Virus genome (UHGV): UHGV-0214218
Length of the DNA: 43,834 nt
From: a virus
Strand: one strand, 5' to 3'
Shown here: positions 715-29,937 of the stretch, in pieces
How positions within the stretch are numbered: the first letter of the stretch is position 1
How the letters are laid out: the number at the start of each line of letters is the position of its first letter
The notes under the pieces: generated by a model
Seen by the model: the letters and a program-made list of their open reading frames with translations, nothing else
What the model was told of the DNA's origin: nothing
Databases searched by the model: none
Position numbers and translations under genes: made by a program

Positions 715-3044
715 ATTTCAACCTCATCATTTGTTAATTTGTAAATAACTACAGCATTACTTGTTCTTTTTGCGCTTTCATCTTTCTCAATAACACCATC
801 TTCAATAAGTTTCTCTATGCATCTTTTCACATCATCGCGTTTATACCCACCTTCTTTTGCAACGCCTCTAACTATTGCGGTCTTAGTCATTCCGCGCTTA
901 ACATATTCTTTAACCATGGAGAAAATACCCTCAATTCGTTCTTCCATAGCTTTAGACTTCGCTCCGGAGATACTGTCAGCACGCATCATCAGGTCGCTTG
1001 TTGATTTAATCGTTAATGCTACCGCATATCTCAGGTGCTCCATGGTTATGACGCCAGTATCGCACGCGAGAATGCCAGCAATCTTTGCCACCTTCACAGC
1101 GCATCTGTTTATCAATGGGTGATAACCAGTACCGTTTTCTACATGCTTTCTTGCAACGGTTTTAATCCATGAGAAGAACTCCTTAGCGAGCTGAGAAACC
1201 TCAGGCGTAGCTTTTATAATCCGTCTTTCTTTTTTACTGATGATTGAGTCTGTCCAGTTTTTGTGCCCTGCCGTTCCACCATTTATTATCGTTTTTATGG
1301 TCAGTTGCATATCCATAGGGAGATCACAGTAATTGACGTTTTCGTTTTCGTCAGCAATCTCCTGTAACTCCTGCATAATCATTGCACGACCCATAAGACC
1401 TGACTTAATGTTTTCTTCAGTGATAAGTCGCTTAAACTGATCATCAGTAGACACACCAAAGATTGAAAAAAATGGATTCCTTATAGCTCCGTCAATTCTG
1501 TTTATCACATCATCAAACTGACACTTAATGTCAACGGGGTCTGCCTGTATTTCATTTTCCTCAATAGCAATCAACAGCATAGCCTTTCTCTTTTCGAAAG
1601 ACTTAATGAAATCCTCAGTAACACGCTGGTCACAATAAAGAACTTCTGACGTGTAAGCCTCCATGATGGCACCAGCGGTTGCCATGTTGTACTCGCTTAC
1701 TTTCTGACCAACAACACTACCAAGTTTTATGCCAATCTCATCCATGATGATATTAAACATCTGGTTAGCGCAAAGACCTTCATATATCGCACGCTCTGAA
1801 CGTATCTTGCCAGCAACAGTCTTACTTAATCCTGAGCAATCAATTATCTTTTGTAGCGCTGCAAGAACATCACCTTTACCTGAACCAGAGCCTGCAATGC
1901 CAACAGCAAACAGGTTTGGCAAAGCCTTCCTGTTTGTAAGGTAAATATCAGATGACGCCCCGCAAATCATGGATGCGGCGTACAATGCGGCAAGTGCTGC
2001 AATATTCTCTCGCTTCTCTGCACAGTTCTTATTAATCCAGGCGGCAAGGCGACCAACAAACCCAGGGGGATAACGGACATCAACGCTTTTGTACTCTACA
2101 GGGCATTCACCAACACCCATTGCCATTTCTCGCTCGAAAGACTCAAGTTTTTCAATTTCCTCTGGCGTAGCCTCAAAAGTTACTTGCCTTACCCACCCAC
2201 CCTCTTGCGCCAGATAAACAAGAGTGCCTGCGGTTATCTTGTCGTCAATTCCATCTTTACCAAAGGAATGCCATTTGGCATCCATCTCCTCTGGCCGGTA
2301 TTTGCTGAACTGTGATGACCAGTTATTCCACAGGTCAAACCCATTACCGTCAGTTGCTTCATGGATAGCCATCCCCACATTTATCCACGGATTGTACTCA
2401 TCACCATCATTGATGTATTTGAGCATGTCTTCCATTTCAGCAATGCTGTAATTTTTACTATCAAGCGTGAAAACCTCATCTTCCGATCGCTCAGGACGAA
2501 GAAGAAGTTCAATAAGTTGATATGGAGCTTCAGTTATCTCAGAAGGAGAACCATGCTCGGCTTCATAAAAATTACCTGACTTATGGAAAGAGCCGCAGCC
2601 AATAACGAAACCAGATGATTTAAAGTCAATGCCATTAAATCTCCTGTCATGAGATCGCAGCTTTATTCCTTCAGGAAGTTTGTAATAGATATGGCGACCA
2701 CCGCCACCAGTCTTTACCGTAAAACCAGCTTCATCAGCAAGTTCAACATCTAACGCATCACAAAGCGCATCGTATCCATCATTACCACCATTTCTTGGGT
2801 CAATATCAACAACAAGATACCCATTAACAAGAACGCCGAATGACTGTAACTTGCCATACTTAGCCATGCTTTCAATCTGCTCATCATCCCACTGGACACC
2901 AAGCTGCCAGTTACTCATAATCGGATGCTTTCCCGCAGCCTTACATTCCTGATCGCCACAAGTACAGTTGCGCTCCTCATCCATTGGATGAATGTCGATA
3001 ATAGGGAAACCGCATTTGCGATAATCTTCATAACCAATCATCAC
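711..3044 (-). CDS. replicative primase-helicase: N-terminal bifunctional primase-polymerase (DIDPRNGG), D5-N-like region, P4/SF3-type helicase with Walker A GIAGSGSGKGD
   Basis: 777-aa ORF with motifs read directly from the translation. Gene order and length are typical of a phage primase/helicase. Confidence 0.85.
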   Translation of the reverse strand: MMIGYEDYRKCGFPIIDIHPMDEERNCTCGDQECKAAGKHPIMSNWQLGVQWDDEQIESMAKYGKLQSFGVLVNGYLVVDIDPRNGGNDGYDALCDALDVELADEAGFTVKTGGGGRHIYYKLPEGIKLRSHDRRFNGIDFKSSGFVIGCGSFHKSGNFYEAEHGSPSEITEAPYQLIELLLRPERSEDEVFTLDSKNYSIAEMEDMLKYINDGDEYNPWINVGMAIHEATDGNGFDLWNNWSSQFSKYRPEEMDAKWHSFGKDGIDDKITAGTLVYLAQEGGWVRQVTFEATPEEIEKLESFEREMAMGVGECPVEYKSVDVRYPPGFVGRLAAWINKNCAEKRENIAALAALYAASMICGASSDIYLTNRKALPNLFAVGIAGSGSGKGDVLAALQKIIDCSGLSKTVAGKIRSERAIYEGLCANQMFNIIMDEIGIKLGSVVGQKVSEYNMATAGAIMEAYTSEVLYCDQRVTEDFIKSFEKRKAMLLIAIEENEIQADPVDIKCQFDDVINRIDGAIRNPFFSIFGVSTDDQFKRLITEENIKSGLMGRAMIMQELQEIADENENVNYCDLPMDMQLTIKTIINGGTAGHKNWTDSIISKKERRIIKATPEVSQLAKEFFSWIKTVARKHVENGTGYHPLINRCAVKVAKIAGILACDTGVITMEHLRYAVALTIKSTSDLMMRADSISGAKSKAMEERIEGIFSMVKEYVKRGMTKTAIVRGVAKEGGYKRDDVKRCIEKLIEDGVIEKDESAKRTSNAVVIYKLTNDEVEI

Positions 3045-3256
3045 TTAATTCTCCGAACAGATACTTCACCAAACCCAGCCTTTCTTGTTACAAAAACCCA
3101 TGAGTTATCTTTCGCAACACAACACAGACTTGCCCTGAATTTTTCAATACTGCTATTGGCGCGGAAATCATCAACAACAAAAAAACGCACATCACCAACA
3201 GACATACCATTAACAAACTCATACGCCTCAGCCATCGCACTACCAAAACGATACAT
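3041..3256 (-). CDS. hypothetical small protein, first gene of the primase operon
   Basis: 71-aa ORF overlapping the primase start by ATGA. Confidence 0.35.
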   Translation of the reverse strand: MYRFGSAMAEAYEFVNGMSVGDVRFFVVDDFRANSSIEKFRASLCCVAKDNSWVFVTRKAGFGEVSVRRIK

Positions 3257-3858: not shown

Positions 3859-3887
3859 GTTGACGTAGAATCATCATTGATGTAGAT
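3859..3887 (+). promoter_or_regulatory. early promoter TTGACG-17-TAGATT (contains the 12-mer TTGACGTAGAAT)
   Basis: -35 at 3859-3864 and -10 at 3882-3887. A GAGGGTGAAGAG RBS and an ATG at 3919 follow. Confidence 0.5.
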
Positions 3888-3918
3888 TGAACCCATCGAA
3901 ACAAACGAGGGTGAAGAG

Positions 3919-6133: not shown

Positions 6134-6646
6134 ATGCATGAAGATTATTTTAGTTACGCCAATGGTAAGCTGTATTGGGTTTTACGCAATGAGGAATCAT
6201 TCAAAACCAAAAGAGGATACTCAGTACACAAAAATAAATATGCTGGTAAGGAGGCTGGCAACATTGGAAGGAATGGTTACAGGTATGTGCGCGTTTATGG
6301 GAAGCTGCTACTTGCGCACCGCATTATATGGGAGATGTTTAACGGACCAATCCCGGAAGGTATGGAGGTCGATCATATAGATACAAACCCATCAAATAAC
6401 GACATATCAAACCTGAGATTGGCAACGTCATCTAACAATAAATGGAATATGAATATACCATCACATAATACTTCCGGATTTAAGGGTGTGAGCCTTTTCA
6501 AGGCTACCGGGAAGTACGAGGCTTACATAAAATTTAACGGCAGGAAGATTCACCTTGGTTTTTTTGATACGCCGGAACTTGCACATGAGGCGTATAAGTT
6601 AGCGGCTGATAAGATGTTCATGGAGTTTAGCAATCATGGAAATTAA
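6134..6646 (+). CDS. HNH homing endonuclease with AP2 DNA-binding domain, inserted between terS and terL
   Basis: HNH_3-like core LAHRIIWEMFNGPIPEGMEVDHIDTNPSNNDISNLRLAT plus an AP2-like GFKGVS...YEAYIKFNGRKIHLGFFDTPELAHEAY. Overlaps the terL start by 11 nt. Confidence 0.85.
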   Translation: MHEDYFSYANGKLYWVLRNEESFKTKRGYSVHKNKYAGKEAGNIGRNGYRYVRVYGKLLLAHRIIWEMFNGPIPEGMEVDHIDTNPSNNDISNLRLATSSNNKWNMNIPSHNTSGFKGVSLFKATGKYEAYIKFNGRKIHLGFFDTPELAHEAYKLAADKMFMEFSNHGN

Positions 6647-7943
6647 GATGACACTAACCGAGCCTCAGGCAAGGTTCATGAACCTCAATTGTAAATTCCC
6701 TGCTTTTATCGCTGGCTTTGGTACTGGGAAGTCAGAGACTATGTGTAACTCTGCATTGCTTGATAGTCTCGAAGGTGGTTCTGACTCACTTATAGCCATG
6801 TATCAGCCGACTTATGATCTTGTGCGCCTTATTCTTGCTCCCCGCATGGAAGAGAAGTTGATCGACTGGGGTATTCGATATAAATATAACAAGGCAGAGA
6901 ACATAATCTACACGTCATCAGGGCAGATGGGGGATTTTGTTCTCAGGACTCTGGATAATCCGGCGCGAATAGTTGGTTATGAGTCGTTCCGTGCAAAGAT
7001 TGACGAAATTGACACACTTAAGCAAGAACACGCATCTGAGGCGTGGATAAAAATAATCGCCCGTAACCGTCAGCGCCCGAGAACATATACTGACACGTCA
7101 GGCAAGCCTATGAATACCGTTGGCATATTCTCAACCCCAGAGGGGTTCCGGTTTGTTTATGACAGATGGGTAAAGAACAAAAAGGATGGGTACGAAATGG
7201 TGCAGGCAAGCACTATGAGCAACCCTTTCCTGCCTGATGACTACGTTCAGTCACTGCGCGATAGCTATCCACCGCAACTCATTGAAGCCTATCTGCAGGG
7301 TGAGTTTGTAAACCTTACGTCTGGCACTGTTTATCCTCAATTCGACAGGAATCTTAATCACAGCGACGAGGAATACAAGACTGGTGAACCAGCCCATGTC
7401 GGTATGGACTTCAACGTGGGCAAGATGTCTGCGATTATTCATGTTGAAAGGGATGGCGACCCGATCGCAGTTGGCGAGATACTTGGTGCTTACGATACTC
7501 CAGAAATGATTCGGTTAATCAAGCAGCGTTTATGGCGTGAGACATCAAATGGTGAGTTTGAGAAGCTGTGTGAAATTTACGTTTATCCTGATGCGTCAGG
7601 TGGCAGCCGCAAGACCGTGAACGCTGGCACGTCAGATATAGCTTTGTTGAGAGATGCTGGCTTTCATGTTATGGCTGACAGTAAGAACCCACCAGTCAGG
7701 GACCGCATCAACTCTGTTAACGCGATGTTCTGCAATGCTGAAGGAGAGCGCAGATACAAGGTAAACACAAAGCTGTGTCCAGTCTACACTGAGGCGAGAG
7801 AGCAGCAGATTTACAACAAGCAGGGCGAGCCAGACAAAACTCACGATAAGGACCACCCGAACGATGCGGCTGATTATTACATTTATAATAAGTTCCCGCT
7901 CGTACGACCAATGGCAGCAATGCTAATCCGGCGCAGGCGATAA
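6636..7943 (+). CDS. terL: terminase large subunit
   Basis: 435 aa. Walker A FIAGFGTGKSE, then a C-terminal nuclease-like region with conserved acidic residues. Confidence 0.9.
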   Translation: MEIKMTLTEPQARFMNLNCKFPAFIAGFGTGKSETMCNSALLDSLEGGSDSLIAMYQPTYDLVRLILAPRMEEKLIDWGIRYKYNKAENIIYTSSGQMGDFVLRTLDNPARIVGYESFRAKIDEIDTLKQEHASEAWIKIIARNRQRPRTYTDTSGKPMNTVGIFSTPEGFRFVYDRWVKNKKDGYEMVQASTMSNPFLPDDYVQSLRDSYPPQLIEAYLQGEFVNLTSGTVYPQFDRNLNHSDEEYKTGEPAHVGMDFNVGKMSAIIHVERDGDPIAVGEILGAYDTPEMIRLIKQRLWRETSNGEFEKLCEIYVYPDASGGSRKTVNAGTSDIALLRDAGFHVMADSKNPPVRDRINSVNAMFCNAEGERRYKVNTKLCPVYTEAREQQIYNKQGEPDKTHDKDHPNDAADYYIYNKFPLVRPMAAMLIRRRR

Positions 7944-7976
7944 AAATAAAGCCCTCATTCGAGGGCTTGTTTCTCT
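7943..7976. terminator. bidirectional rho-independent terminator (AAGCCCTC-ATTC-GAGGGCTT) flanked by A-run and T-run
   Basis: 8-bp stem. The stop codons of terL and of the converging DpdA-like gene lie in or next to the hairpin. Confidence 0.75.
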
Positions 7977-8740
7977 ATCCACTCATCTATCGTCGGTGGC
8001 TTAACTGACTCTACAGCTCCTTTAAGCACCGCTGCCCTGCCGCGCAATATAGTTTGCTTCAATTCTCTGTCATCAAGACCATTGCAATAATCCGCCTCTC
8101 TTATTGCGCGCGTCAGTTCTGGATACTTGACCTCGAATTTCGGTATGTTGCACGCCAGATTGGTGCTGTCTGCCGTGTGTAATGGGTAATTACCCAGCAC
8201 GCGACCATCAAGCATGCGCAGACCGTGAATCTTCGTTTTTAGTCCACGTTTAATATAAATCTCCGTGAGTGCCTCCTTCATTCTGGCATGCCATAATTTA
8301 GTGCGAATTGTTGCGTATTGCCCTGATGAGCCAAAGCAGACTTTAGGCCAGTTCTGGCACAGTTCAACCAGCCTGTCGATGCTTTCGTGAAGGTGCCATG
8401 TTGGTACGGCTTTACCCCTGAACATAGAAGGAAGTTCACGGATGAGTCTATCGTTATCTTCCTCGCTACCATCAATAACATCAGGGATGATAAAGAAATC
8501 AAGTTTTTCATTGTGGTAATGTTGCATCAGCCACTGATAAAAAGGAGTCCAGTCGCGAACAGGGTTTCCGCTTCTCCATGCGCTGAAGGCACCATTATCA
8601 AAAGCAACACTTCCAGATAATTCAAGAGCTTTCTTTGTTTGTTGAGGCCATGCGTGAGAAACGAAAGCGCCACTTCCCCGTGTGGCTATTTGCATAACTC
8701 CATCACCCCATATCGGCAGACCGTGATAATGATGTATCAT
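7955..8740 (-). CDS. DpdA-like protein, tRNA-guanine-transglycosylase (TGT) superfamily; putative DNA 7-deazaguanine transglycosylase
   Basis: FDNGAFSAW aligns to the TGT substrate motif DSGGFQ. HTADSTNL aligns to the catalytic FD(C/S) region. The CxCxxC zinc subdomain is absent. The ATG at 8738-8740 overlaps the stop of the adjacent YhhQ-like transporter gene as ATGA, with a GAGGA RBS. Confidence 0.5.
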   Translation of the reverse strand: MIHHYHGLPIWGDGVMQIATRGSGAFVSHAWPQQTKKALELSGSVAFDNGAFSAWRSGNPVRDWTPFYQWLMQHYHNEKLDFFIIPDVIDGSEEDNDRLIRELPSMFRGKAVPTWHLHESIDRLVELCQNWPKVCFGSSGQYATIRTKLWHARMKEALTEIYIKRGLKTKIHGLRMLDGRVLGNYPLHTADSTNLACNIPKFEVKYPELTRAIREADYCNGLDDRELKQTILRGRAAVLKGAVESVKPPTIDEWIEKQALE

Positions 8741-9201
8741 TTTGCTTTCCTCAAAATTAATGACCATGCAGCGCCGCCGAAAACTTTAGCCACAAATTGA
8801 CCAGCGACAACTAGCGGCATAAAGTAACCAAAGGCAATAAGCGGAAAAATTACCGAATCAACAGCTGACGCTGCTATATTGCTTGCGTTGGACTTTATCA
8901 GCCAATGCTTTTTGATTAGTAACTGGTATACAGACGCATCAGCTAGAGCTGCGATAGCGAACGAAGCAACACTTGCGATGGCGATCATATCGGTGGCTGG
9001 GTTAATCAAATAACTCAACACACCAGCGATACATATAAGAACTATTATTTTCCTGACACCGACCCTCTCATGCAGCTTATCCCTTACAACAAAATCAAGG
9101 CCAATAAACAGAAACGCGTTTACTGGAGTGATTGCCGGTCCAAAGAAATGCACCGAGAAATTTGCTGCGCATATTGCTGCTATATAAATTACTGAAAGCA
9201 T
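8737..9201 (-). CDS. YhhQ/DUF165-family membrane protein (queuosine-precursor preQ0/preQ1 transporter family), short form
   Basis: The 154-aa polytopic protein aligns to E. coli YhhQ: LFIGLDFVVRDKLHERVGVRKIIVLICIAGVLSYLIN versus IFLATDLTVRIFGAPLARRIIFAVMIPALLISYVIS, and NIAASAVDSVIF versus LFGNVSDTLAFF. CAGGAG RBS. Confidence 0.6.
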   Translation of the reverse strand: MLSVIYIAAICAANFSVHFFGPAITPVNAFLFIGLDFVVRDKLHERVGVRKIIVLICIAGVLSYLINPATDMIAIASVASFAIAALADASVYQLLIKKHWLIKSNASNIAASAVDSVIFPLIAFGYFMPLVVAGQFVAKVFGGAAWSLILRKAK

Positions 9202-9228
9202 GTTAACTCCTGTTTGTTATTCATTGCC

Positions 9229-9257
9229 AATCTACATCACTAGCATATTTACGTCAA
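9229..9257 (-). promoter_or_regulatory. leftward promoter TTGACG-17-TAGATT for the YhhQ-like/DpdA-like operon
   Basis: On the - strand, TTGACG is the complement of 9252-9257 and TAGATT is the complement of 9229-9234, with a 17-bp spacer. Same architecture as the promoter at 3859. Confidence 0.5.
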
Positions 9258-9295
9258 CATTTATTATTGTTGTTGATAAATCAGCATCAACGCAC

Positions 9296-9324
9296 TTGAC
9301 CAATCTACACCGGGCGCATAGTAT
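9296..9324 (+). promoter_or_regulatory. rightward promoter TTGACC-17-TAGTAT for the early cluster starting at 9355
   Basis: -35 at 9296-9301 and -10 at 9319-9324. Three ATCTACA motif copies lie in the same 150-bp divergent region. Confidence 0.55.
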
Positions 9325-9354
9325 ATCTACATCAGGCTTACCGGAGATATCACT

Positions 9355-9561
9355 ATGCGCAGCTATGCAGGATTTACACAGGAGGAAAAAGAGCAGGTTT
9401 ACTCACTGGCACGAGCTGGGGTGCCTGATGATGTGATTTGCCGTCGGTATGATATCGACGAGGATTTTCTACTGCGCGTTATTGATGATGTTTTCGTTAA
9501 CCTGCAAGAGAAGCGCGGGTACAAGGGTATCTGCTGCAAGAATGATTTTTTGAGAGGGTGA
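9355..9561 (+). CDS. hypothetical early protein (68 aa)
   Basis: Six-frame ORF with GGAG 10 nt upstream. Confidence 0.5.
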   Translation: MRSYAGFTQEEKEQVYSLARAGVPDDVICRRYDIDEDFLLRVIDDVFVNLQEKRGYKGICCKNDFLRG

Positions 9562-9562
9562 T

Positions 9563-9748
9563 ATGATGATTATTGAAAAATCAAATGGCAATGTGGAAAT
9601 TGAGGTTTTCTCATATAAGATGGCTGGGTATGATGATGATATTAAATTCATTCAGGGTGACGCTGATGAACTTAATATAAGCAAACGTCAGGCGATGGAG
9701 TTGATTGATATTTTGCGGAAGTTTGTTAATGGTGAGGAAATTGAGTGA
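9563..9748 (+). CDS. hypothetical early protein (61 aa)
   Basis: Six-frame ORF, tightly packed. Confidence 0.45.
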   Translation: MMIIEKSNGNVEIEVFSYKMAGYDDDIKFIQGDADELNISKRQAMELIDILRKFVNGEEIE

Positions 9749-10372: not shown

Positions 10373-12704
<2,332 letters not shown>

Positions 12705-15151: not shown

Positions 15152-15311
15152 GCAAAGAGATGCATTAGCACAGGAATGGGCGCGCATAACCAGCGGGGGA
15201 GGTGATATTGAGTCGGCGTGGCTTGAGCTTAAGCATCGCGCTAAGCTGATTCAATTCGCAACTCGTCGGTGTTTTATATGGAGGCTGCGCAATGATGTCG
15301 ATTCTCGCTAA
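15141..15311 (+). CDS. possible small soluble protein (56 aa) between the holin-like gene and Rz
   Basis: ATG at 15141 overlapping the holin end. Weak support. Confidence 0.25.
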   Translation: MVSEQRDALAQEWARITSGGGDIESAWLELKHRAKLIQFATRRCFIWRLRNDVDSR

Positions 15312-15783
15312 ATACTGGCGACCGCTGGCAATTATTATAATTGTTGTTATCTGCGCGCTGTGGGTTGTCGGCAAAGTGTCCAGTTATGGTGAGCAACAAT
15401 ATAACGCAGGATATGCAAAAGCAATCGCCGAACAGAAGGCCGCAGATGAACAAGAGGAGCAACGACGCAATGCAGAACTGCAAAAGATTCAGGCCGACGC
15501 ACAGCAAAGGGTTGATGCTGCGCGCAATGATGCTGTCAATGCTGCTACTAAGTCTGGCAGGTTGCAGCAACAACTCGCAAATATCCGCAAGCAGCTCGTC
15601 GGATATTCCACCTCTGAGTCCATTGGCAATCCAGCCGCAGAAACCGGAGTTTTGCTTGCCGACGTGCTCAGCAAATCTGTCGAAAGAAATCGACAACTGG
15701 CAGATTACGCTGACAGGGCAAGAGAAGCAGGATTAGCGTGTGAGGCGCAGTACAATTCGCTGCGCAATAAAAAAGCCCCGTAA
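15292..15783 (+). CDS. Rz: i-spanin (Rz-like): N-terminal TM anchor plus periplasmic coiled coil
   Basis: TM segment LAIIIIVVICALWVV, then a Q/A/E-rich coiled coil. An embedded +1-frame lipoprotein gene follows the classic pattern. Confidence 0.75.
   Translation: MMSILAKYWRPLAIIIIVVICALWVVGKVSSYGEQQYNAGYAKAIAEQKAADEQEEQRRNAELQKIQADAQQRVDAARNDAVNAATKSGRLQQQLANIRKQLVGYSTSESIGNPAAETGVLLADVLSKSVERNRQLADYADRAREAGLACEAQYNSLRNKKAP
15515..15736 (+). CDS. Rz1: o-spanin (Rz1-like outer-membrane lipoprotein) embedded in the +1 frame of Rz
   Basis: MLRAMMLSMLLLSLAGC signal with an LAGC lipobox. Pro-rich mature part. Fully embedded in Rz. Confidence 0.65.
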   Translation: MLRAMMLSMLLLSLAGCSNNSQISASSSSDIPPLSPLAIQPQKPEFCLPTCSANLSKEIDNWQITLTGQEKQD

Positions 15784-16445: not shown

Positions 16446-16747
16446 TATTTAATCTCTCCATTCAGTTCATTAACAATTAACGTCGCATAGCCAGCAATAT
16501 CTTTCCAGCTATCATCATAGGTCGGGTCGCCATTCAGAATTCGCCCAATCTTGTGCTGAATCATGTCGAGTGCCTCGCGTTGGCTTGGCGTCAGGTTGTG
16601 CCAGCCATCCACTTCGCGCATCACATCTTTCAGCTCCTGCATGATTTCAGCACCGTCTTTGAATTTACCGTATCGACTGCCGCGCTCTGTGATGAGTTGC
16701 TCTGTTGCATTAGTATGGCGCTTATCGCCCGTGATTTGTGAACTCAT
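16445..16747 (-). CDS. hypothetical protein (100 aa)
   Basis: Six-frame ORF. Confidence 0.5.
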   Translation of the reverse strand: MSSQITGDKRHTNATEQLITERGSRYGKFKDGAEIMQELKDVMREVDGWHNLTPSQREALDMIQHKIGRILNGDPTYDDSWKDIAGYATLIVNELNGEIK

Positions 16748-17234
16748 TGTGATGCATTCTCCTAAATTCTTTTATTTTTGCTTCCGCTTCTCTTATGTCA
16801 GAAAAGTAACCAACTGTAACTCTTTTGCCATTTACTCCAACTCTTGCATGCCACTTGTTGTGCGATGAACTCCAGTTAACCCCCTTGACACCGCTAGTGT
16901 TGTTTTTGTTCATTGCTTTGTTGTGGCTATTCTCAAATTTACTGGCCGCCCTTAAATTGCACGCCCTGTTGTCATTGCGAATGCCATTGATGTGATCAAT
17001 CATTTCACTTGCTGATGAGCCATGAATGCATATCCATGCTAATCTATGAGCAAGAAAAGCCCTGCCACAAAGAATTATTTGCACATATCCATCTGGCTTT
17101 AAGTGGCCCGCCACGCTCCCTTTTTCTGCAATCCTATTCCTTGTCTTTAGCCATTTAAATTCCCCAGTTAGTGGATTGTAGTCAAGGTAACTCAATATAA
17201 ACTCCCTACTCGGCTCCTCCCTCCTATGTCTCAT
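16722..17234 (-). CDS. HNH homing endonuclease with AP2 domain (paralogue of the terS/terL-inserted one)
   Basis: FLAHRLAWICIHG...IDHINGIRNDNRACNLRAAS plus GVKGVNWSSSHNKWHARVGVNGKRVTVGYF aligns with the 6134-6646 protein. Confidence 0.8.
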   Translation of the reverse strand: MRHRREEPSREFILSYLDYNPLTGEFKWLKTRNRIAEKGSVAGHLKPDGYVQIILCGRAFLAHRLAWICIHGSSASEMIDHINGIRNDNRACNLRAASKFENSHNKAMNKNNTSGVKGVNWSSSHNKWHARVGVNGKRVTVGYFSDIREAEAKIKEFRRMHHNEFTNHGR

Positions 17235-23661: not shown

Positions 23662-23834
23662 CACTTCACCTTAATCATGTGCTGTTTTGCAACTTTCAGG
23701 CATTCTTCAAAAATGCCGCCCTTCTTTGCACTCTGATTGCGCTTGTAATACTGGATTGCCGCATCAATTGCCATCTGGTCAATGTCAGGTAGCTTGGCGC
23801 GCAGCTGTTTTTCGATGAATTGTTCGGGACTCAT
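23661..23834 (-). CDS. small protein (57 aa)
   Basis: ATGA overlap with the methyltransferase stop. Its stop overlaps the next ATG. Confidence 0.35.
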   Translation of the reverse strand: MSPEQFIEKQLRAKLPDIDQMAIDAAIQYYKRNQSAKKGGIFEECLKVAKQHMIKVK

Positions 23835-24550
23835 CCTAAAATCCTATTTTTTGCTATTTCAAAATACACATCATCTTTTTCAATGCCGATGAACCTACGC
23901 CCTGTGTTTATGCACGCCACGCCAGTTGTGCCGCTGCCCATAGTGAAATCGAGAACCGTTTCACCCTCATTGGTGTAGGTCTTGATTAGGTACTCCATGA
24001 GGGTGACTGGTTTTTGTGTCGGGCGAACTGTTTTCCCTTCGCTTGGAAACCTTTGAATTGTCTTTGGGTAGTTTGTGTGAGTTTGAAGGTACTCTGTTTT
24101 CCTCACCCCGCCGCCATTGTTATCTGTAACCTTTGAGCCTTGCTTTGTTATTTTGTTGCACTCGATAAGACCTTGAGGATAGTAAGCTGGAGAACTCGCA
24201 GAAAAAACGATTACATCTTCATGTATTTTTAAAGGCTGTTTTTTAGCGAGCATCTGGTTTGCGAATCTGGTTTTCTCCCAAACCCAACAATACTTAAACA
24301 TCTTCATGTTGCTTGCAATGAGTGTTGTAGTAAACGGCTGGCTTGCAGTCATCACAATAGCGCCGTTCGGCTTTATGATGCGCTTCAATTGTTCCCACAT
24401 TGGCTCAAGAGGGATGATGGAGTCCCATTTACAGGCGGTTGTACCATAAGGTGGGTCGGTAAGCACCAGATCAACGCTACCACCTGGAATAGACTTCATA
24501 ACTTCCAGACAATCACCATGAATTAATTGCACACCTTTATTTATAATCAT
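23831..24550 (-). CDS. DNA methyltransferase, beta-class amino-MTase (motif IV DPPY precedes motif I FTMGSGTT); N6-adenine (Dam-like) or N4-cytosine
   Basis: DLVLTDPPYG comes before DFTMGSGTTGVA, the circular permutation typical of the beta class. Confidence 0.85.
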   Translation of the reverse strand: MIINKGVQLIHGDCLEVMKSIPGGSVDLVLTDPPYGTTACKWDSIIPLEPMWEQLKRIIKPNGAIVMTASQPFTTTLIASNMKMFKYCWVWEKTRFANQMLAKKQPLKIHEDVIVFSASSPAYYPQGLIECNKITKQGSKVTDNNGGGVRKTEYLQTHTNYPKTIQRFPSEGKTVRPTQKPVTLMEYLIKTYTNEGETVLDFTMGSGTTGVACINTGRRFIGIEKDDVYFEIAKNRILG

Positions 24551-25359
24551 TACATCTTCTCCAGAATTGCCATAACCTCGTGAATGTCAGCAACAGGAAT
24601 CTGGATAAATTCCTCATCCTCTGCCACCACATGACCAGCGGGAAGAATCACATGGTCTGCCGGCTTCAATAACTCAATCAAACGGTCTACTGGCTTAATC
24701 TTTTTCGACTTCAGCACCTTTGCCGTGACCTTGTCCTTGCCCTGCGCCTTCGCTTCTTCGACTGCCTCGTCGATAACTTTTACCGCATCATCACCATGCT
24801 CACGCGTTACTGCTACGGCATTTGCATAGCTGATTTGCCCGGCGCTGATTCGCGCTTTTACTTCCGCTGGAACGTCACCCAACGACAGATGCATCTGCAC
24901 GTCAGACACTGAACGCCCTACCTTCTTGGCGATTTCTTCATTCGTCCAGCCAAAGCCTTTCAGTCGCGTGTAAGCCTTTGCGCGCTCAAACGGGTCAAGT
25001 TGCTTGCCCTGACTTGATGACACCATGAATGCGATTTTATCCGCCTCGTCGCCAGTGAAATCTTTGCACTCAATGCGAACGATTGGTGCTCCGCGCTCAA
25101 TGGCACGCAATGCGCCGAGATAGCGGTGCTGACCATCAAGAATGCGGATTCCTTTCTCGTCAGGAATAACTGTTAATGCTGGTAATGGCTGACCTGATTC
25201 CCAGCACTGCGCGAAATATTCCACATGCTGCTCATCTGCTTCACGGATGTTATATCCCGGCTCCAGATAGATTTGTTCCACTGGTACGATATAGGTTTTG
25301 TTAACAGCGATGCCGTTGCGCGTTTCTTTGTCTGAATAGATTTTACTGAGTGTTTTCAT
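24550..25359 (-). CDS. ParB-like nuclease domain protein
   Basis: ParB/Srx-fold N-terminal motif ILDGQHRYLGAL. Start overlaps the methyltransferase stop by ATGA. Confidence 0.7.
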   Translation of the reverse strand: MKTLSKIYSDKETRNGIAVNKTYIVPVEQIYLEPGYNIREADEQHVEYFAQCWESGQPLPALTVIPDEKGIRILDGQHRYLGALRAIERGAPIVRIECKDFTGDEADKIAFMVSSSQGKQLDPFERAKAYTRLKGFGWTNEEIAKKVGRSVSDVQMHLSLGDVPAEVKARISAGQISYANAVAVTREHGDDAVKVIDEAVEEAKAQGKDKVTAKVLKSKKIKPVDRLIELLKPADHVILPAGHVVAEDEEFIQIPVADIHEVMAILEKM

Positions 25360-27639: not shown

Positions 27640-28013
27640 TGAATATGCTTGAACTGGTTGATGCATATCTTCAGGATGCAGGATTGTACGATGGCTGGAC
27701 TTCGCAGTTGCAGTTCTGGAATGACACCGGAGATGGCAACGAGCAATTTATTGTTCTGCAATCCAACGGCGGCACGCAGGTGATGGATGGCATCGGCGGT
27801 GACTTCTATTTCTCGCTGTATGTTGTCGGCAGGCATGGTCAATACAACGTTGCCGATGTTGATGCGAAAGCCAATGAGATTATCGAATACATCAAGACGC
27901 ATCCGATTGATTCATGCGTTAACTATATCCAGTTGCAAGCGCCACTCGGTAGGCCGATGTTGACTGAGGAGAAGAGACCAGTGCATGAGTTGCTTTTGCT
28001 GGTTGTGAAATAA
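27639..28013 (+). CDS. putative tail terminator / neck protein
   Basis: Last of the four small coupled genes before the major tail gene. Confidence 0.35.
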   Translation: MNMLELVDAYLQDAGLYDGWTSQLQFWNDTGDGNEQFIVLQSNGGTQVMDGIGGDFYFSLYVVGRHGQYNVADVDAKANEIIEYIKTHPIDSCVNYIQLQAPLGRPMLTEEKRPVHELLLLVVK

Positions 28014-28016
28014 ATA

Positions 28017-28040
28017 AAGCCGCACTTGGCGGCCTTATTA
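28017..28040 (+). terminator. weak terminator-like hairpin (GCCGC-ACTTG-GCGGC followed by CTTATTA)
   Basis: 5-bp stem and a poor T-run. May act as an attenuator ahead of the long leader. Confidence 0.3.
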
Positions 28041-28068
28041 CTGGTTTAAGCATTGCCAGCGTGCTTTC

Positions 28069-28132
28069 TTAATATCCAGCCCCGTAACCCATACATACCC
28101 CTACATATGATTGCGATAATGCTGGATATTAA
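28069..28132. repeat. perfect 12-bp inverted repeat TTAATATCCAGC / GCTGGATATTAA separated by 40 nt inside a 430-bp non-coding leader
   Basis: Arms at 28069-28080 and 28121-28132. Partial extension of the stem on both sides. Confidence 0.5.
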
Positions 28133-28426
28133 GTGCTGTGGCGTCTCGCGATTAACTGAGACCGGCATAACAATGGATGCAAACCTATCCAAATAATCAA
28201 GATGGCATTACCACAACGGCAAGAGCACTCCCACTTTAACCCGCACGACCCATTAATACGCCGTCGGCTGCTCTGAAATGCTCTTACCTGTTGTGTGCCG
28301 GTTACGCGTCCGGCGTCTCTCGACCGCTAATTGCAATTGAAGAATTGTCTGTAATTAAATGAAATCAGGGAACCAATCTCTGTTAAATCCAAATCTACAC
28401 CACAAAATAATCACTGTCAACACCTG

Positions 28427-28435
28427 TGATATAAT
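28427..28435 (+). promoter_or_regulatory. extended -10 TGATATAAT with AATCTACACCAC at about -40, promoter of the major tail gene
   Basis: CTGTGATATAATCACC with the AATCTACACCAC motif at 28392-28403. GGAG RBS and the ATG at 28472 follow. Confidence 0.5.
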
Positions 28436-28471
28436 CACCACGTTAGCAGCTAACACAATTCGGAGATCGAA

Positions 28472-29191
28472 ATGGCTATTTGTGCAAATGATAAAGGCGT
28501 TCTGGTCGGTCGCATGACCCGACTGTTCCTTGCTGAAGGGTGCGGTGACGCAGTTCCGGCAGCAGAAGACTGGAAGTATTTAGGCTCAACCACCAGTAAA
28601 GGAGTTGACTACTCGCCGCAGACTACCACGTCGGAAGCTGATACCACTGGCGGTTTTGTCTCCACTCTCGTTACCAGCTCTGATATGACCATCAGTGCAG
28701 AGGTTGAAATCCGCAAGAATGACCCTAGCGATGAATTTGGCTTCCATCGTCTGGTTGAAATTTACACCACTGAACTTAAAGCGCGTCGCCAGCCTTCCTT
28801 GTGGGTGCGCGAGGTGACTGGTGCAACCATCGTTACTGCGTACTGCAACATCACCAGCATCAGCTACGAAGGCGGCACGAACGACATCGTAACTGGCAGC
28901 CTTGAATTCAAGGTTTACGATTCTGACAGTGTCACCGTCGAAAGCCTTGAGCCTCTGAAGTTCACTACCGACCTATCACCAACCGGCACCGCTAGCAGCC
29001 CGTTAACCGTTGCTGTTGAAGGTGGCGTCTCTCCTTACACCTACGTGTGGCGCAAAGATGGCGTAGTTGTCGGCAGCGAATCAGGCGCAACACTGGCAAG
29101 CCCTACCGCTGGTGTGTATACCGTAACTGTCACAGACTCGTCCACTGACCCTGAAATCATCATCAGCACGGCTTGCACTGTATCAGGATAA
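28472..29191 (+). CDS. major tail protein with C-terminal Ig-like domain
   Basis: 239 aa with highly optimised codons. The C-terminal roughly 80 aa have a Big_2-like pattern. A strong terminator follows. Confidence 0.75.
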   Translation: MAICANDKGVLVGRMTRLFLAEGCGDAVPAAEDWKYLGSTTSKGVDYSPQTTTSEADTTGGFVSTLVTSSDMTISAEVEIRKNDPSDEFGFHRLVEIYTTELKARRQPSLWVREVTGATIVTAYCNITSISYEGGTNDIVTGSLEFKVYDSDSVTVESLEPLKFTTDLSPTGTASSPLTVAVEGGVSPYTYVWRKDGVVVGSESGATLASPTAGVYTVTVTDSSTDPEIIISTACTVSG

Positions 29192-29193
29192 AG

Positions 29194-29222
29194 AAAAAGC
29201 CCCGAAAGGGGCTTTGTTTTAT
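29194..29222. terminator. bidirectional terminator (AAGCCCC-GAAA-GGGGCTT followed by TGTTTTATT)
   Basis: GNRA tetraloop hairpin serving both the rightward tail gene and the leftward moron cassette. Confidence 0.8.
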
Positions 29223-29419
29223 TCTTGTGGTGGTTCTGGTGGATTGGCCCAATGGGTAGCTGGAATGCCGTGACAGCGGTCTAATTCACTAACAAAAATC
29301 TTACTGCCAATGTTGTCGATAACTTTACATACCGCAGTTCTAACGACACCACGAAATGCTGTGATAACCATCTCGCCTTCTTCAGGCATCCTATCACTAC
29401 ACTTAATCCACTGGCTCAT
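29219..29419 (-). CDS. DUF551-family protein
   Basis: WIKCSDRMPEEGEMVI...THWANPPEPP matches the DUF551 signature (SERLPE...HWMPLPEPP). Confidence 0.65.
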   Translation of the reverse strand: MSQWIKCSDRMPEEGEMVITAFRGVVRTAVCKVIDNIGSKIFVSELDRCHGIPATHWANPPEPPQE

Positions 29420-29559
29420 ATCACCTTATCCTCATCAAAAATCACACCAATCACACGAAGCAAATCTTTCGCCATGCGTTCCGATTCTTCGTAGTCGTAA
29501 CCTGCATCAACATATAGTTCAGTGTAGAAAATCAGGTCAGCTTTTGTTTGTTCGTTCAT
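29416..29559 (-). CDS. small acidic protein (47 aa)
   Basis: ATGA overlap with the DUF551 gene. AAGG RBS. Confidence 0.35.
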   Translation of the reverse strand: MNEQTKADLIFYTELYVDAGYDYEESERMAKDLLRVIGVIFDEDKVI

Positions 29560-29568
29560 GGGCAAGCC

Positions 29569-29862
29569 TTACATACCTTGCTTTTCACATAAAGCAACAG
29601 CCACATCACGCAATTGCTCTTTGGTCATATCCTTGCGTGCATAAACCATTTCTACGATAGCAATGCCGATTATTTCTGCTGATTCGTTGTTTTTTGCGGA
29701 ACCTTTAACTACCACCTCGGCAAGATTCTTGCTGATACCATTATCGCGAACATCAGCAGTGTTCATGGCGATTTCTCCAATGTTCTTGCACACCTCTGAT
29801 GTTGCTACAGCAGAGAAAGAAGAAACCAATAGTGCAGATGCAATCAAAATTTTAATTTTCAT
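29569..29862 (-). CDS. secreted (Sec signal, signal peptidase I site AVA-TSE) small protein, moron
   Basis: MKIKILIASALLVSSFSAVA signal peptide without a lipobox. AT-rich relative to neighbours. Opposite strand inside the tail module. Confidence 0.55.
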   Translation of the reverse strand: MKIKILIASALLVSSFSAVATSEVCKNIGEIAMNTADVRDNGISKNLAEVVVKGSAKNNESAEIIGIAIVEMVYARKDMTKEQLRDVAVALCEKQGM

Positions 29863-29937
29863 AACTCACCTCATTTATATCTCGTTTCGATGACTTGAAT
29901 CTACATCACCACCTAGCAGGTGTCAACACCACTGAGA

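Follow-up and report, generated by a model that had tools for sequence, protein, structure and literature searches.

A two-gene cassette pairing a short YhhQ-family transporter with a phage-type DpdA: a candidate 7-deazaguanine DNA modification module in an enterobacterial phage

Introduction

In Escherichia phage CAjan (Queuovirinae, DpdA1), about 32% of G is replaced in the DNA, and deletion of dpdA abolishes 2'-deoxy-7-cyano-7-deazaguanosine (dPreQ0) (PMC6884629; PMC7544227). Besides a short YhhQ-like transporter (159 aa) and a zinc-less DpdA with the motif DSGAF, CAjan also encodes FolE, QueD, QueE and QueC; in its folE and queC mutants host preQ0 still sustains about 1/12 of the modification (PMC7544227), which indicates that host-supplied preQ0 can feed a phage DpdA. 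Here we describe a cassette of about 1.3 kb in the UHGV virus genome UHGV-0214218 (43,834 nucleotides; this whole stretch is called the window below), an enterobacterial phage of the Akira / Sa179lw / LPST10-like group. The cassette resembles CAjan in joining a short YhhQ-family transporter to a zinc-less DpdA, and it differs from CAjan, in which yhhQ and dpdA are not adjacent, in that its two genes overlap. We consider it probable, at roughly 60%, that the two genes of the cassette form a complete module, able to move horizontally, for modifying phage DNA with salvaged 7-deazaguanine.

Cassettes of this type have already been catalogued in phages. In the census of Hutinet 2019, the phages with DpdA only formed the largest group (76 phages), for which a host supply of preQ0 or exogenous uptake was proposed; phage YhhQ homologues were noted there with 'no correlation'. 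Supplementary Data 1 of that study gives consecutive DpdA and YhhQ accessions for the DpdA-only phages CDKM15 (Clostridium), eHP-6 (a halophage) and phiLM21 (Sinorhizobium), and DpdA alone for PEAT2. The DpdA-only phages 7-11, PEAT2, HK106, SfI, SEN1, SPN3UB and BTP1 are like the phage studied here in having a DpdA of the same clade and no genes for the synthesis of preQ0 or G+. PEAT2 also has the same short transporter directly upstream of DpdA, which was missed in the 2019 table; RefSeq annotates this pair as 'VUT family protein' and 'queuine tRNA-ribosyltransferase'. A preliminary description of the window had called the pairing of an importer with a transglycosylase unusual in a phage, but CAjan has both yhhQ and dpdA (PMC7544227) and the 2019 table lists further pairs, so that this claim has to be dropped. 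Compared with the DpdA-only phages of 2019, the present cassette has a 154-aa importer that is translationally coupled to DpdA, a promoter and a terminator of its own, and a place between terL and portal as an item of cargo. What is new is modest: the obligate coupling of a short transporter subfamily to DpdA, the packaging as cargo between promoter and terminator, and the spread over unrelated phage backbones.

Results

The 261-aa product of the downstream gene matches PHROG 887, 'queuine tRNA-ribosyltransferase', at E 7e-76. In tblastn comparisons its identity is 38% to the Salmonella phage 7-11 protein listed as DpdA (Hutinet 2019) and 41-63% to the DpdA proteins of PEAT2, HK106 and SEN1; with the proteins of SfI, SPN3UB and BTP1 it shares about 40-44%, the alignments covering 75% of its length. 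BLASTP aligned it with CAjan DpdA at E 7e-8 (25% identity over 155 aa), placing DNGAFS opposite DSGAFS and ADSTN opposite CDSSS, and hhalign gave this relationship a probability of 89.9%. For one member of the family, the top-ranking model was bacterial DpdA, in PADLOC (E 0.0013) as well as in NCBIfam (NF041059, E 0.0022). In the AlphaFold2 (AF2) model (predicted local distance difference test, pLDDT, 90.8), eight strands form a beta/alpha barrel, which is followed by helices at the C-terminus. Across 42 relatives, down to 19% identity, D48, A51, H116, H172, D191 and S192 are invariant, D87 (at least 90%) and G137 are nearly so, and F52 is present; the conserved active-site residues all lie at the C-terminal ends of barrel strands in the model, and their order agrees with that of D95/F99, D130, H181, the Gly loop and D256 in bacterial DpdA (PMC10164549). 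The signature motifs of the tRNA-guanine transglycosylase (TGT) superfamily that the preliminary description had read in this gene, a DxGxF motif (D48-N-G-A-F52) and a catalytic Asp region (D191), are thus borne out, as is its assignment to the DpdA family, given the match to PHROG 887 and the homology to the DpdA proteins of phage 7-11 and CAjan.

The protein contains no CxCxxC zinc motif, its only cysteines being at 128, 135, 197 and 219. This motif is present in E. coli Tgt (residue 302) and absent from the DpdA proteins of CAjan and 7-11, and bacterial DpdA has a conserved CXCX2CX22H zinc site (PMC10164549). The absence of the zinc subdomain was therefore rightly noted before, but it is no hallmark of DpdA enzymes at large; it characterises the DpdA of phages (CAjan, 7-11) as well as Cap10. 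Bacterial DpdA of the Dpd restriction-modification system (PDB 7ui4) differs further in its 413 aa, its insertions Ins1-3 and Ins8 and its need for DpdB, whereas the phage protein has neither the zinc motif nor a cassette-linked partner. Taken together, the 261-aa protein is a phage-type zinc-less DpdA, neither a canonical TGT nor a bacterial DpdA, and is predicted to be a DNA guanine / 7-deazaguanine transglycosylase.

Two other targets have to be considered for such an enzyme. It could act on RNA, for example host tRNA, raising the 7-deazaguanine content of tRNA and tuning translation during infection; the superfamily is ancestrally tRNA-directed, RefSeq names homologues 'queuine tRNA-ribosyltransferase', and Hutinet 2019 suggested a boost of queuosine in host tRNA for phages that have preQ0/G+ genes and no DpdA. 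We regard this as improbable, because the protein lacks the zinc subdomain and the tRNA-holding insertions of TGT and ArcTGT, no tRNA gene is encoded in the window, CAjan DpdA, the closest validated relative, acts on DNA, and in P2-like prophages the gene adjoins that of a Dam methylase. Still further down the scale we place a role like that of Cap10 (type IV cyclic-oligonucleotide-based anti-phage signalling system, CBASS; PDB 9ntn), which shares the lack of zinc, binds a deazaguanine-conjugated protein N-terminus and is encoded in an operon with Cap9 and a CD-NTase. The phage protein would then be a reader or transferase of deazaguanine on a target other than nucleic acid and might, for instance, serve as a counter-defence by removing or intercepting the conjugate of NDG and protein in type IV CBASS or QatABCD; no sequence similarity to Cap10 was detected, and the context of Cap9 (QueC-like) and CD-NTase is absent around the cassette.

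The upstream gene encodes a 154-aa protein that matches Pfam PF02592 (Vut_1/DUF165) with 37.0 bits against a gathering cut-off of 27.2 (E 5.5e-9; only residues 70-141 are aligned), and a precomputed PF02592 hit was found in 120/120 of its homologues among the matches listed. With gp41 of the CAjan deazaguanine cluster, a 159-aa 'putative preQ0 transporter', it shares 31% identity (E 2e-11). In the AF2 model (pLDDT 84), helices span residues 2-20, 22-46, 49-66, 68-94, 100-124 and 129-149, in agreement with the hydropathy profile, and three significant matches were obtained in BFVD (template modelling score 0.62-0.70, the top ones at probability 1.00), one of them a 'putative vitamin uptake transporter'. 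The protein and E. coli YhhQ (COG1738) share the Pfam family, the six helices and the intramembrane Asp/Arg residues, D36/R40, D88 and D115 aligning with D57/R61, D126 and D153 of YhhQ. Membership in the YhhQ/DUF165 family, as proposed in the preliminary description, accordingly stands: on sequence grounds the protein is a short YhhQ-family member rather than an orthologue-level YhhQ, and it is predicted to import 7-deazaguanine bases (preQ0/preQ1).

The transported substrate could nevertheless differ. The best NCBIfam matches of the protein are the YhhQ equivalogs TIGR00697 and PRK11212, and both remain below their cut-offs (25 bits against 50.95, and 20.5 against 252); at 154 aa it falls 67 residues short of E. 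coli YhhQ (221 aa), the profile similarity to which is weak (hhalign probability only 34.7%), and its own PHROG, 4899, is annotated 'unknown function'. A chlamydial member of COG1738 transports queuine. The protein might accordingly move another small molecule, such as queuine, a purine analogue or a vitamin, or export guanine, and the pair would then not be using preQ0/preQ1. We judge this to be quite improbable, as the protein is homologous to the transporter of the CAjan preQ0 cluster and its gene adjoins a DpdA-like gene wherever this could be checked. To our knowledge, moreover, the COG1738 members characterised so far all transport 7-deazaguanine bases.

The association of the two genes extends well beyond this phage. 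A homologue of the transporter gene directly adjoins a DpdA-like gene in 13/13 IMG/VR loci (in reversed order in one), and in 9 of these the tblastn matches abut without a gap, sharing the boundary base. The adjacency persists in loci that have other terL and portal genes and a DpdA-like protein of no more than about 40% identity, and in none of the 13 does folE, queD, queE or queC lie within 6 kb. The transporter is also present in 13 GenBank phage records, and the adjacency, read from coordinates, holds in all 12 of them that are checkable; the other, LHE71, is not among the DpdA-like matches listed. The paired records span T1-like phages (Opt-719, Sadiya, Phleasolo), Akira-like phages, PEAT2, Tbat1_6, Lg3, RCIP0319 and Acinetobacter AB3P2. 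The DpdA-like gene itself occurs in about 107 GenBank records, mostly without the transporter. In contrast to the 'no correlation' of 2019, therefore, the short transporter subfamily adjoined a DpdA-like gene wherever checkable, and we infer from this strict synteny, the strongest new evidence in the present analysis, that the transporter and the DpdA-like protein function jointly.

Several other settings of these genes were observed. Enterobacterial prophages commonly carry DpdA-like homologues without the transporter: in P2/186-like prophages (L021-L023, 5001-5822) the gene directly follows that of Dam methylase and precedes replication gene A, and in a lambdoid prophage (L024, 5001-5810) it lies between holin and endolysin, with a fusion of ParB_N and an N6_N4 methylase 0.8 kb downstream. 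The CAjan deazaguanine cluster includes a gene of unknown function, gp40; in two IMG/VR phages a homologue of its C-terminal part, with 55% identity over 72 aa, occupies 2230-2418 (L011 and L012) and so lies 3.6 kb upstream of the transporter-DpdA pair.

In the window ORF (open reading frame) list the pair appears as two minus-strand ORFs (Table 1), the stop codon of the transporter gene overlapping the start of the dpdA-like gene in an ATGA (tcat on the plus strand). A 270-aa form of the dpdA-like ORF, starting at 8767, is less likely, since the majority of homologues start at the Met at 8740, which has the strong Shine-Dalgarno sequence and the ATGA overlap. Homologues of the two genes number thousands (best E 2e-173 and 3e-83); dN/dS is about 0.1 for the transporter gene, and for the DpdA-like gene dN is 0.12 with dS saturated. 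Judged by these comparisons, both genes are real and under purifying selection.

To the left of the cassette lies terL and to the right a 470-aa ORF that we take as the portal gene; it is 96% identical to the ORF at the same position in a related locus, L006, and 63% identical to a Tbat1_6 gene that is annotated DUF1073 and positioned where Akira has its portal gene. Small ORFs are also among the neighbours. The hairpin called as a terminator on both strands stands between the convergent terL and dpdA-like genes and includes the last dpdA-like codons. The reported arrangement of two coupled opposite-strand genes between terL and portal, with a shared bidirectional terminator, is thus confirmed.

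At the DNA level, the cassette was found in 1/141 related GenBank records, ECO111 5-P, and comparison with the cassette-less phage NX263 (L020) defines its edges. By blastn of window 7600-9700, positions 7600-7944 correspond to 2400-2744 and positions 9275-9583 to 2739-3047 of NX263, in which GATAAATC is continuous across the insertion site; the inserted segment is flanked in the window by direct repeats of GATAAA. The slot between terL and portal is empty in NX263 (L020 2744-2819) and holds two unrelated small minus-strand ORFs in Akira (L019 2774-3129), and the hairpin is kept in Akira and L006 and absent in NX263. As Akira has the same terminator and promoter around other ORFs, the site appears to be a slot for swappable cargo. 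In addition, the transporter is 95% identical to that of L006 and 71% identical to that of Tbat1_6, whereas the DpdA-like protein is 85% identical to both; these unequal values point to recombination between the two genes, that is, to mosaicism of the module.

The cassette promoter, which matches the consensus at 9/12 positions, is unremarkable on its own, as the region has 9 sites of this quality against 4.3 expected. Its exact architecture, TTGACR-N17-TAGATT, is another matter: it occurs in 4 copies in the window against 0.38 expected, the spacers ending in GTG or GATG, and AATCTACAYC, the -10 side, has 5 occurrences against 0.14 expected. The cassette promoter sequence is conserved in phage Akira, with its different cargo, and in L006. 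The promoter named in the preliminary description is therefore present, and its recurrence, together with a copy before other minus-strand ORFs, marks it as a promoter type of this phage that drives opposite-strand cargo; the four copies look like a promoter family that belongs to the phage itself and is read by host RNA polymerase, with several members serving such cargo.

No credible homologue of folE, queD, queE or queC was found in the whole window by tblastn with CAjan FolE, QueD, QueC and QueE, in accordance with the earlier statement that these genes are missing. Weak matches of CAjan QueD (E 0.011) and FolE (E 0.22) lie opposite a plus-strand ORF of 163 aa, downstream of a lysozyme-like ORF, and were rejected as composition noise; judged from the translations, this 163-aa ORF looks like an Rz-type spanin. 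Lacking genes for preQ0 synthesis, the phage must obtain the base from the queuosine pathway of its host, from the medium or from both.

A ParB-like gene 15 kb from the cassette was rejected as a cassette-linked analogue of DpdB, as it is kept in cassette-less relatives such as Bas81, which, like similar relatives, has DNA matches to the cassette flanks only. The start of a gene for an N6/N4 DNA methylase (PF01555, E 5.6e-32) overlaps the stop of this ParB-like gene. Since relatives conserve only the ParB half, the methylase is a second variable DNA-modification cargo of the phage.

Elsewhere in the window, two paralogous genes with HNH_3 and AP2 domains, one of which overlaps the start of terL, are probably homing endonucleases. 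One promoter copy, of the form TTGACA-17-TAGATT, precedes three stacked minus-strand ORFs (97, 49 and 66 aa), the first of which has a signal-peptide-like N-terminus, MKIKILIASALLVSSFSAVA; the plus-strand ORFs around this second cassette are probably tail genes, judged by position, and a plus-strand ORF that overlaps it is probably spurious. Another copy is directed into a 459-bp gap between plus-strand ORFs, the sole ORF of which encodes 48 aa from a TTG start, so that an RNA might be made from this copy, or else a small protein.

Table 1. Positions of the cassette, its signals and other features in the window
Feature	Position	Strand	Remark
Short VUT/YhhQ-family (COG1738, DUF165) membrane protein	8737..9201	-	154 aa, six helices
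Phage DpdA-family protein	7955..8740	-	261 aa, TGT-like triosephosphate isomerase (TIM) barrel without zinc subdomain
ATGA overlap of the two genes	8737..8740	-	
Shine-Dalgarno GAGGAAAG of the dpdA-like gene	8745..8752	-	4 nt before the ATG at 8740, within the transporter 3' end
Shine-Dalgarno AGGAG of the transporter gene	9207..9211	-	5 nt before the ATG
Sigma-70-type promoter TTGACG-N17-TAGATT	9229..9257	-	drives the cassette
Bidirectional intrinsic-terminator-like hairpin AAGCCCTC-ATTC-GAGGGCTT	7949..7968		8-bp stem, 4-nt loop
Inserted segment	7945..9274		about 1.33 kb; terminator, two genes, promoter; absent from NX263
Left GATAAA direct repeat	7939..7944		6 bp; left edge of insert; includes terL stop codon 7941-7943
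Right GATAAA direct repeat	9275..9280		right edge of insert
TTGACR-N17-TAGATT copies	3860-3888; 9229-9257; 28392-28420; 29898-29926	+; -; -; -	
terL	6636-7943	+	
470-aa ORF, taken as portal gene	10376-11788	+	
163-aa ORF, spanin-like	15292-15783	+	
Weak tblastn matches of CAjan QueD and FolE (rejected)	15463-15651	-	
ParB-like gene	24550-25359	-	
N6/N4 DNA methylase	23831-24550	-	
HNH_3 + AP2-domain endonuclease genes	6134-6646; 16722-17234	+; -	
Three stacked ORFs	29219-29862	-	behind promoter copy 29898-29926
ORF overlapping the three stacked ORFs	29310-29660	+	
Gap between plus-strand ORFs	28013-28472		promoter copy 28392-28420 is directed into it
Stretch in this gap headed by the promoter copy	28046-28420	-	

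Discussion

From these data we infer a scheme for the module: what is transported, that DNA is the target, which part each catalytic residue plays, how much of the DNA is modified and that this protects the phage. Host RNA polymerase would transcribe the cassette from its own sigma-70-type promoter, and the transporter and DpdA would be translated as a coupled pair. The six-helix protein of 154 aa, in the inner membrane, may then bring more free 7-deazaguanine base into the cell, preQ0 being the most likely base and preQ1 a possible one, and the 261-aa DpdA would swap guanine in replicated phage DNA for the imported base by the double-displacement mechanism of TGT, with D191 as the likely nucleophile, D48 as the likely general acid/base, F52 as a gate and D87 likely reading the base. 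DNA modified in this way would resist restriction in the next host.

Besides the shortfall of the transporter against the YhhQ models described above, a number of observations weigh against salvage-fed modification of the phage DNA. The profile searches that the preliminary description had named as a check agree with it for the transporter, which passes DUF165. The 261-aa protein matches PHROG 887, but scans of Pfam and NCBIfam gave no match for it at all, TGT included; PF01702 matched 0/42 members of its family in a Pfam scan, searches of PDB with the protein by itself, with the profiles A1 and A2 and with CAjan DpdA returned chance matches only, and hhalign of the family profile against the single E. 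coli Tgt sequence gave a probability of 1.9%, so that homology to canonical TGT rests on the fold and on the bridge through CAjan. The cassette contains no dedicated partner of the DpdB type, and bacterial DpdA requires the ParB-like ATPase DpdB (PMC10164549). In CAjan yhhQ is dispensable, its deletion having no effect on modification in a phage that makes its own preQ0 (PMC7544227). Finally, phage 7-11, the one member of this DpdA clade to have been analysed, has only 50 2'-deoxy-7-amido-7-deazaguanosines (dADG) per 10^6 nt, about 0.02% of G, and the DpdA-only phage Orion has none (PMC6884629).

The last observations lead to the foremost of the alternatives, namely that the genes are correctly identified but bring about only trace or sparse site-specific modification rather than broad anti-restriction hypermodification, their selective value lying elsewhere, for example in marking a few sites or in draining or redirecting the host pool of preQ0/preQ1. 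The trace of dADG in 7-11, whose DpdA is 38% identical to the present protein, and its absence from Orion are in line with this, as are the values for bacterial DpdA and DpdA2, which modify less than 0.1% of G (PMC10516641), and the variable N6/N4 DNA methylase that the phage also carries means that its protection need not depend on DpdA. However, phage 7-11 lacks the transporter, both genes of the cassette are under purifying selection, and the strict coupling of transporter and DpdA (13/13 IMG/VR loci and the 12 checkable GenBank records) argues for a supply of precursor that is limiting and matters. We therefore hold trace modification to be unlikely, though it carries more weight than a different substrate, an RNA target or a Cap10-like target, which follow in that order. 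Should the cassette yield no more than trace modification, like that of phage 7-11, some other reason for the conserved pairing would have to be sought.

A stronger form of the salvage proposal can be put forward only tentatively, and we doubt it more than we credit it: the pair might be a minimal, stand-alone 'import and insert' module by which a phage that lacks biosynthetic genes hypermodifies its DNA (at least 1% of G), the 7-deazaguanine being picked up from the surroundings and perhaps being preQ1 or queuine of the gut rather than preQ0. If this were true, the restriction resistance of the phage would depend on the nutrient content of the habitat, and it would be explained why the short transporter subfamily was never seen away from DpdA.

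In summary, the cassette and its relatives offer a clean two-gene test case, as they are found in easily grown coliphages and Salmonella phages and host mutants in queC, queD and yhhQ exist. If the module works as proposed, it would be a compact and transferable anti-restriction device, and the presence of two genes would suffice to predict deazaguanine-modified DNA, which would matter for host range in phage therapy, for cloning and for nanopore base-calling.

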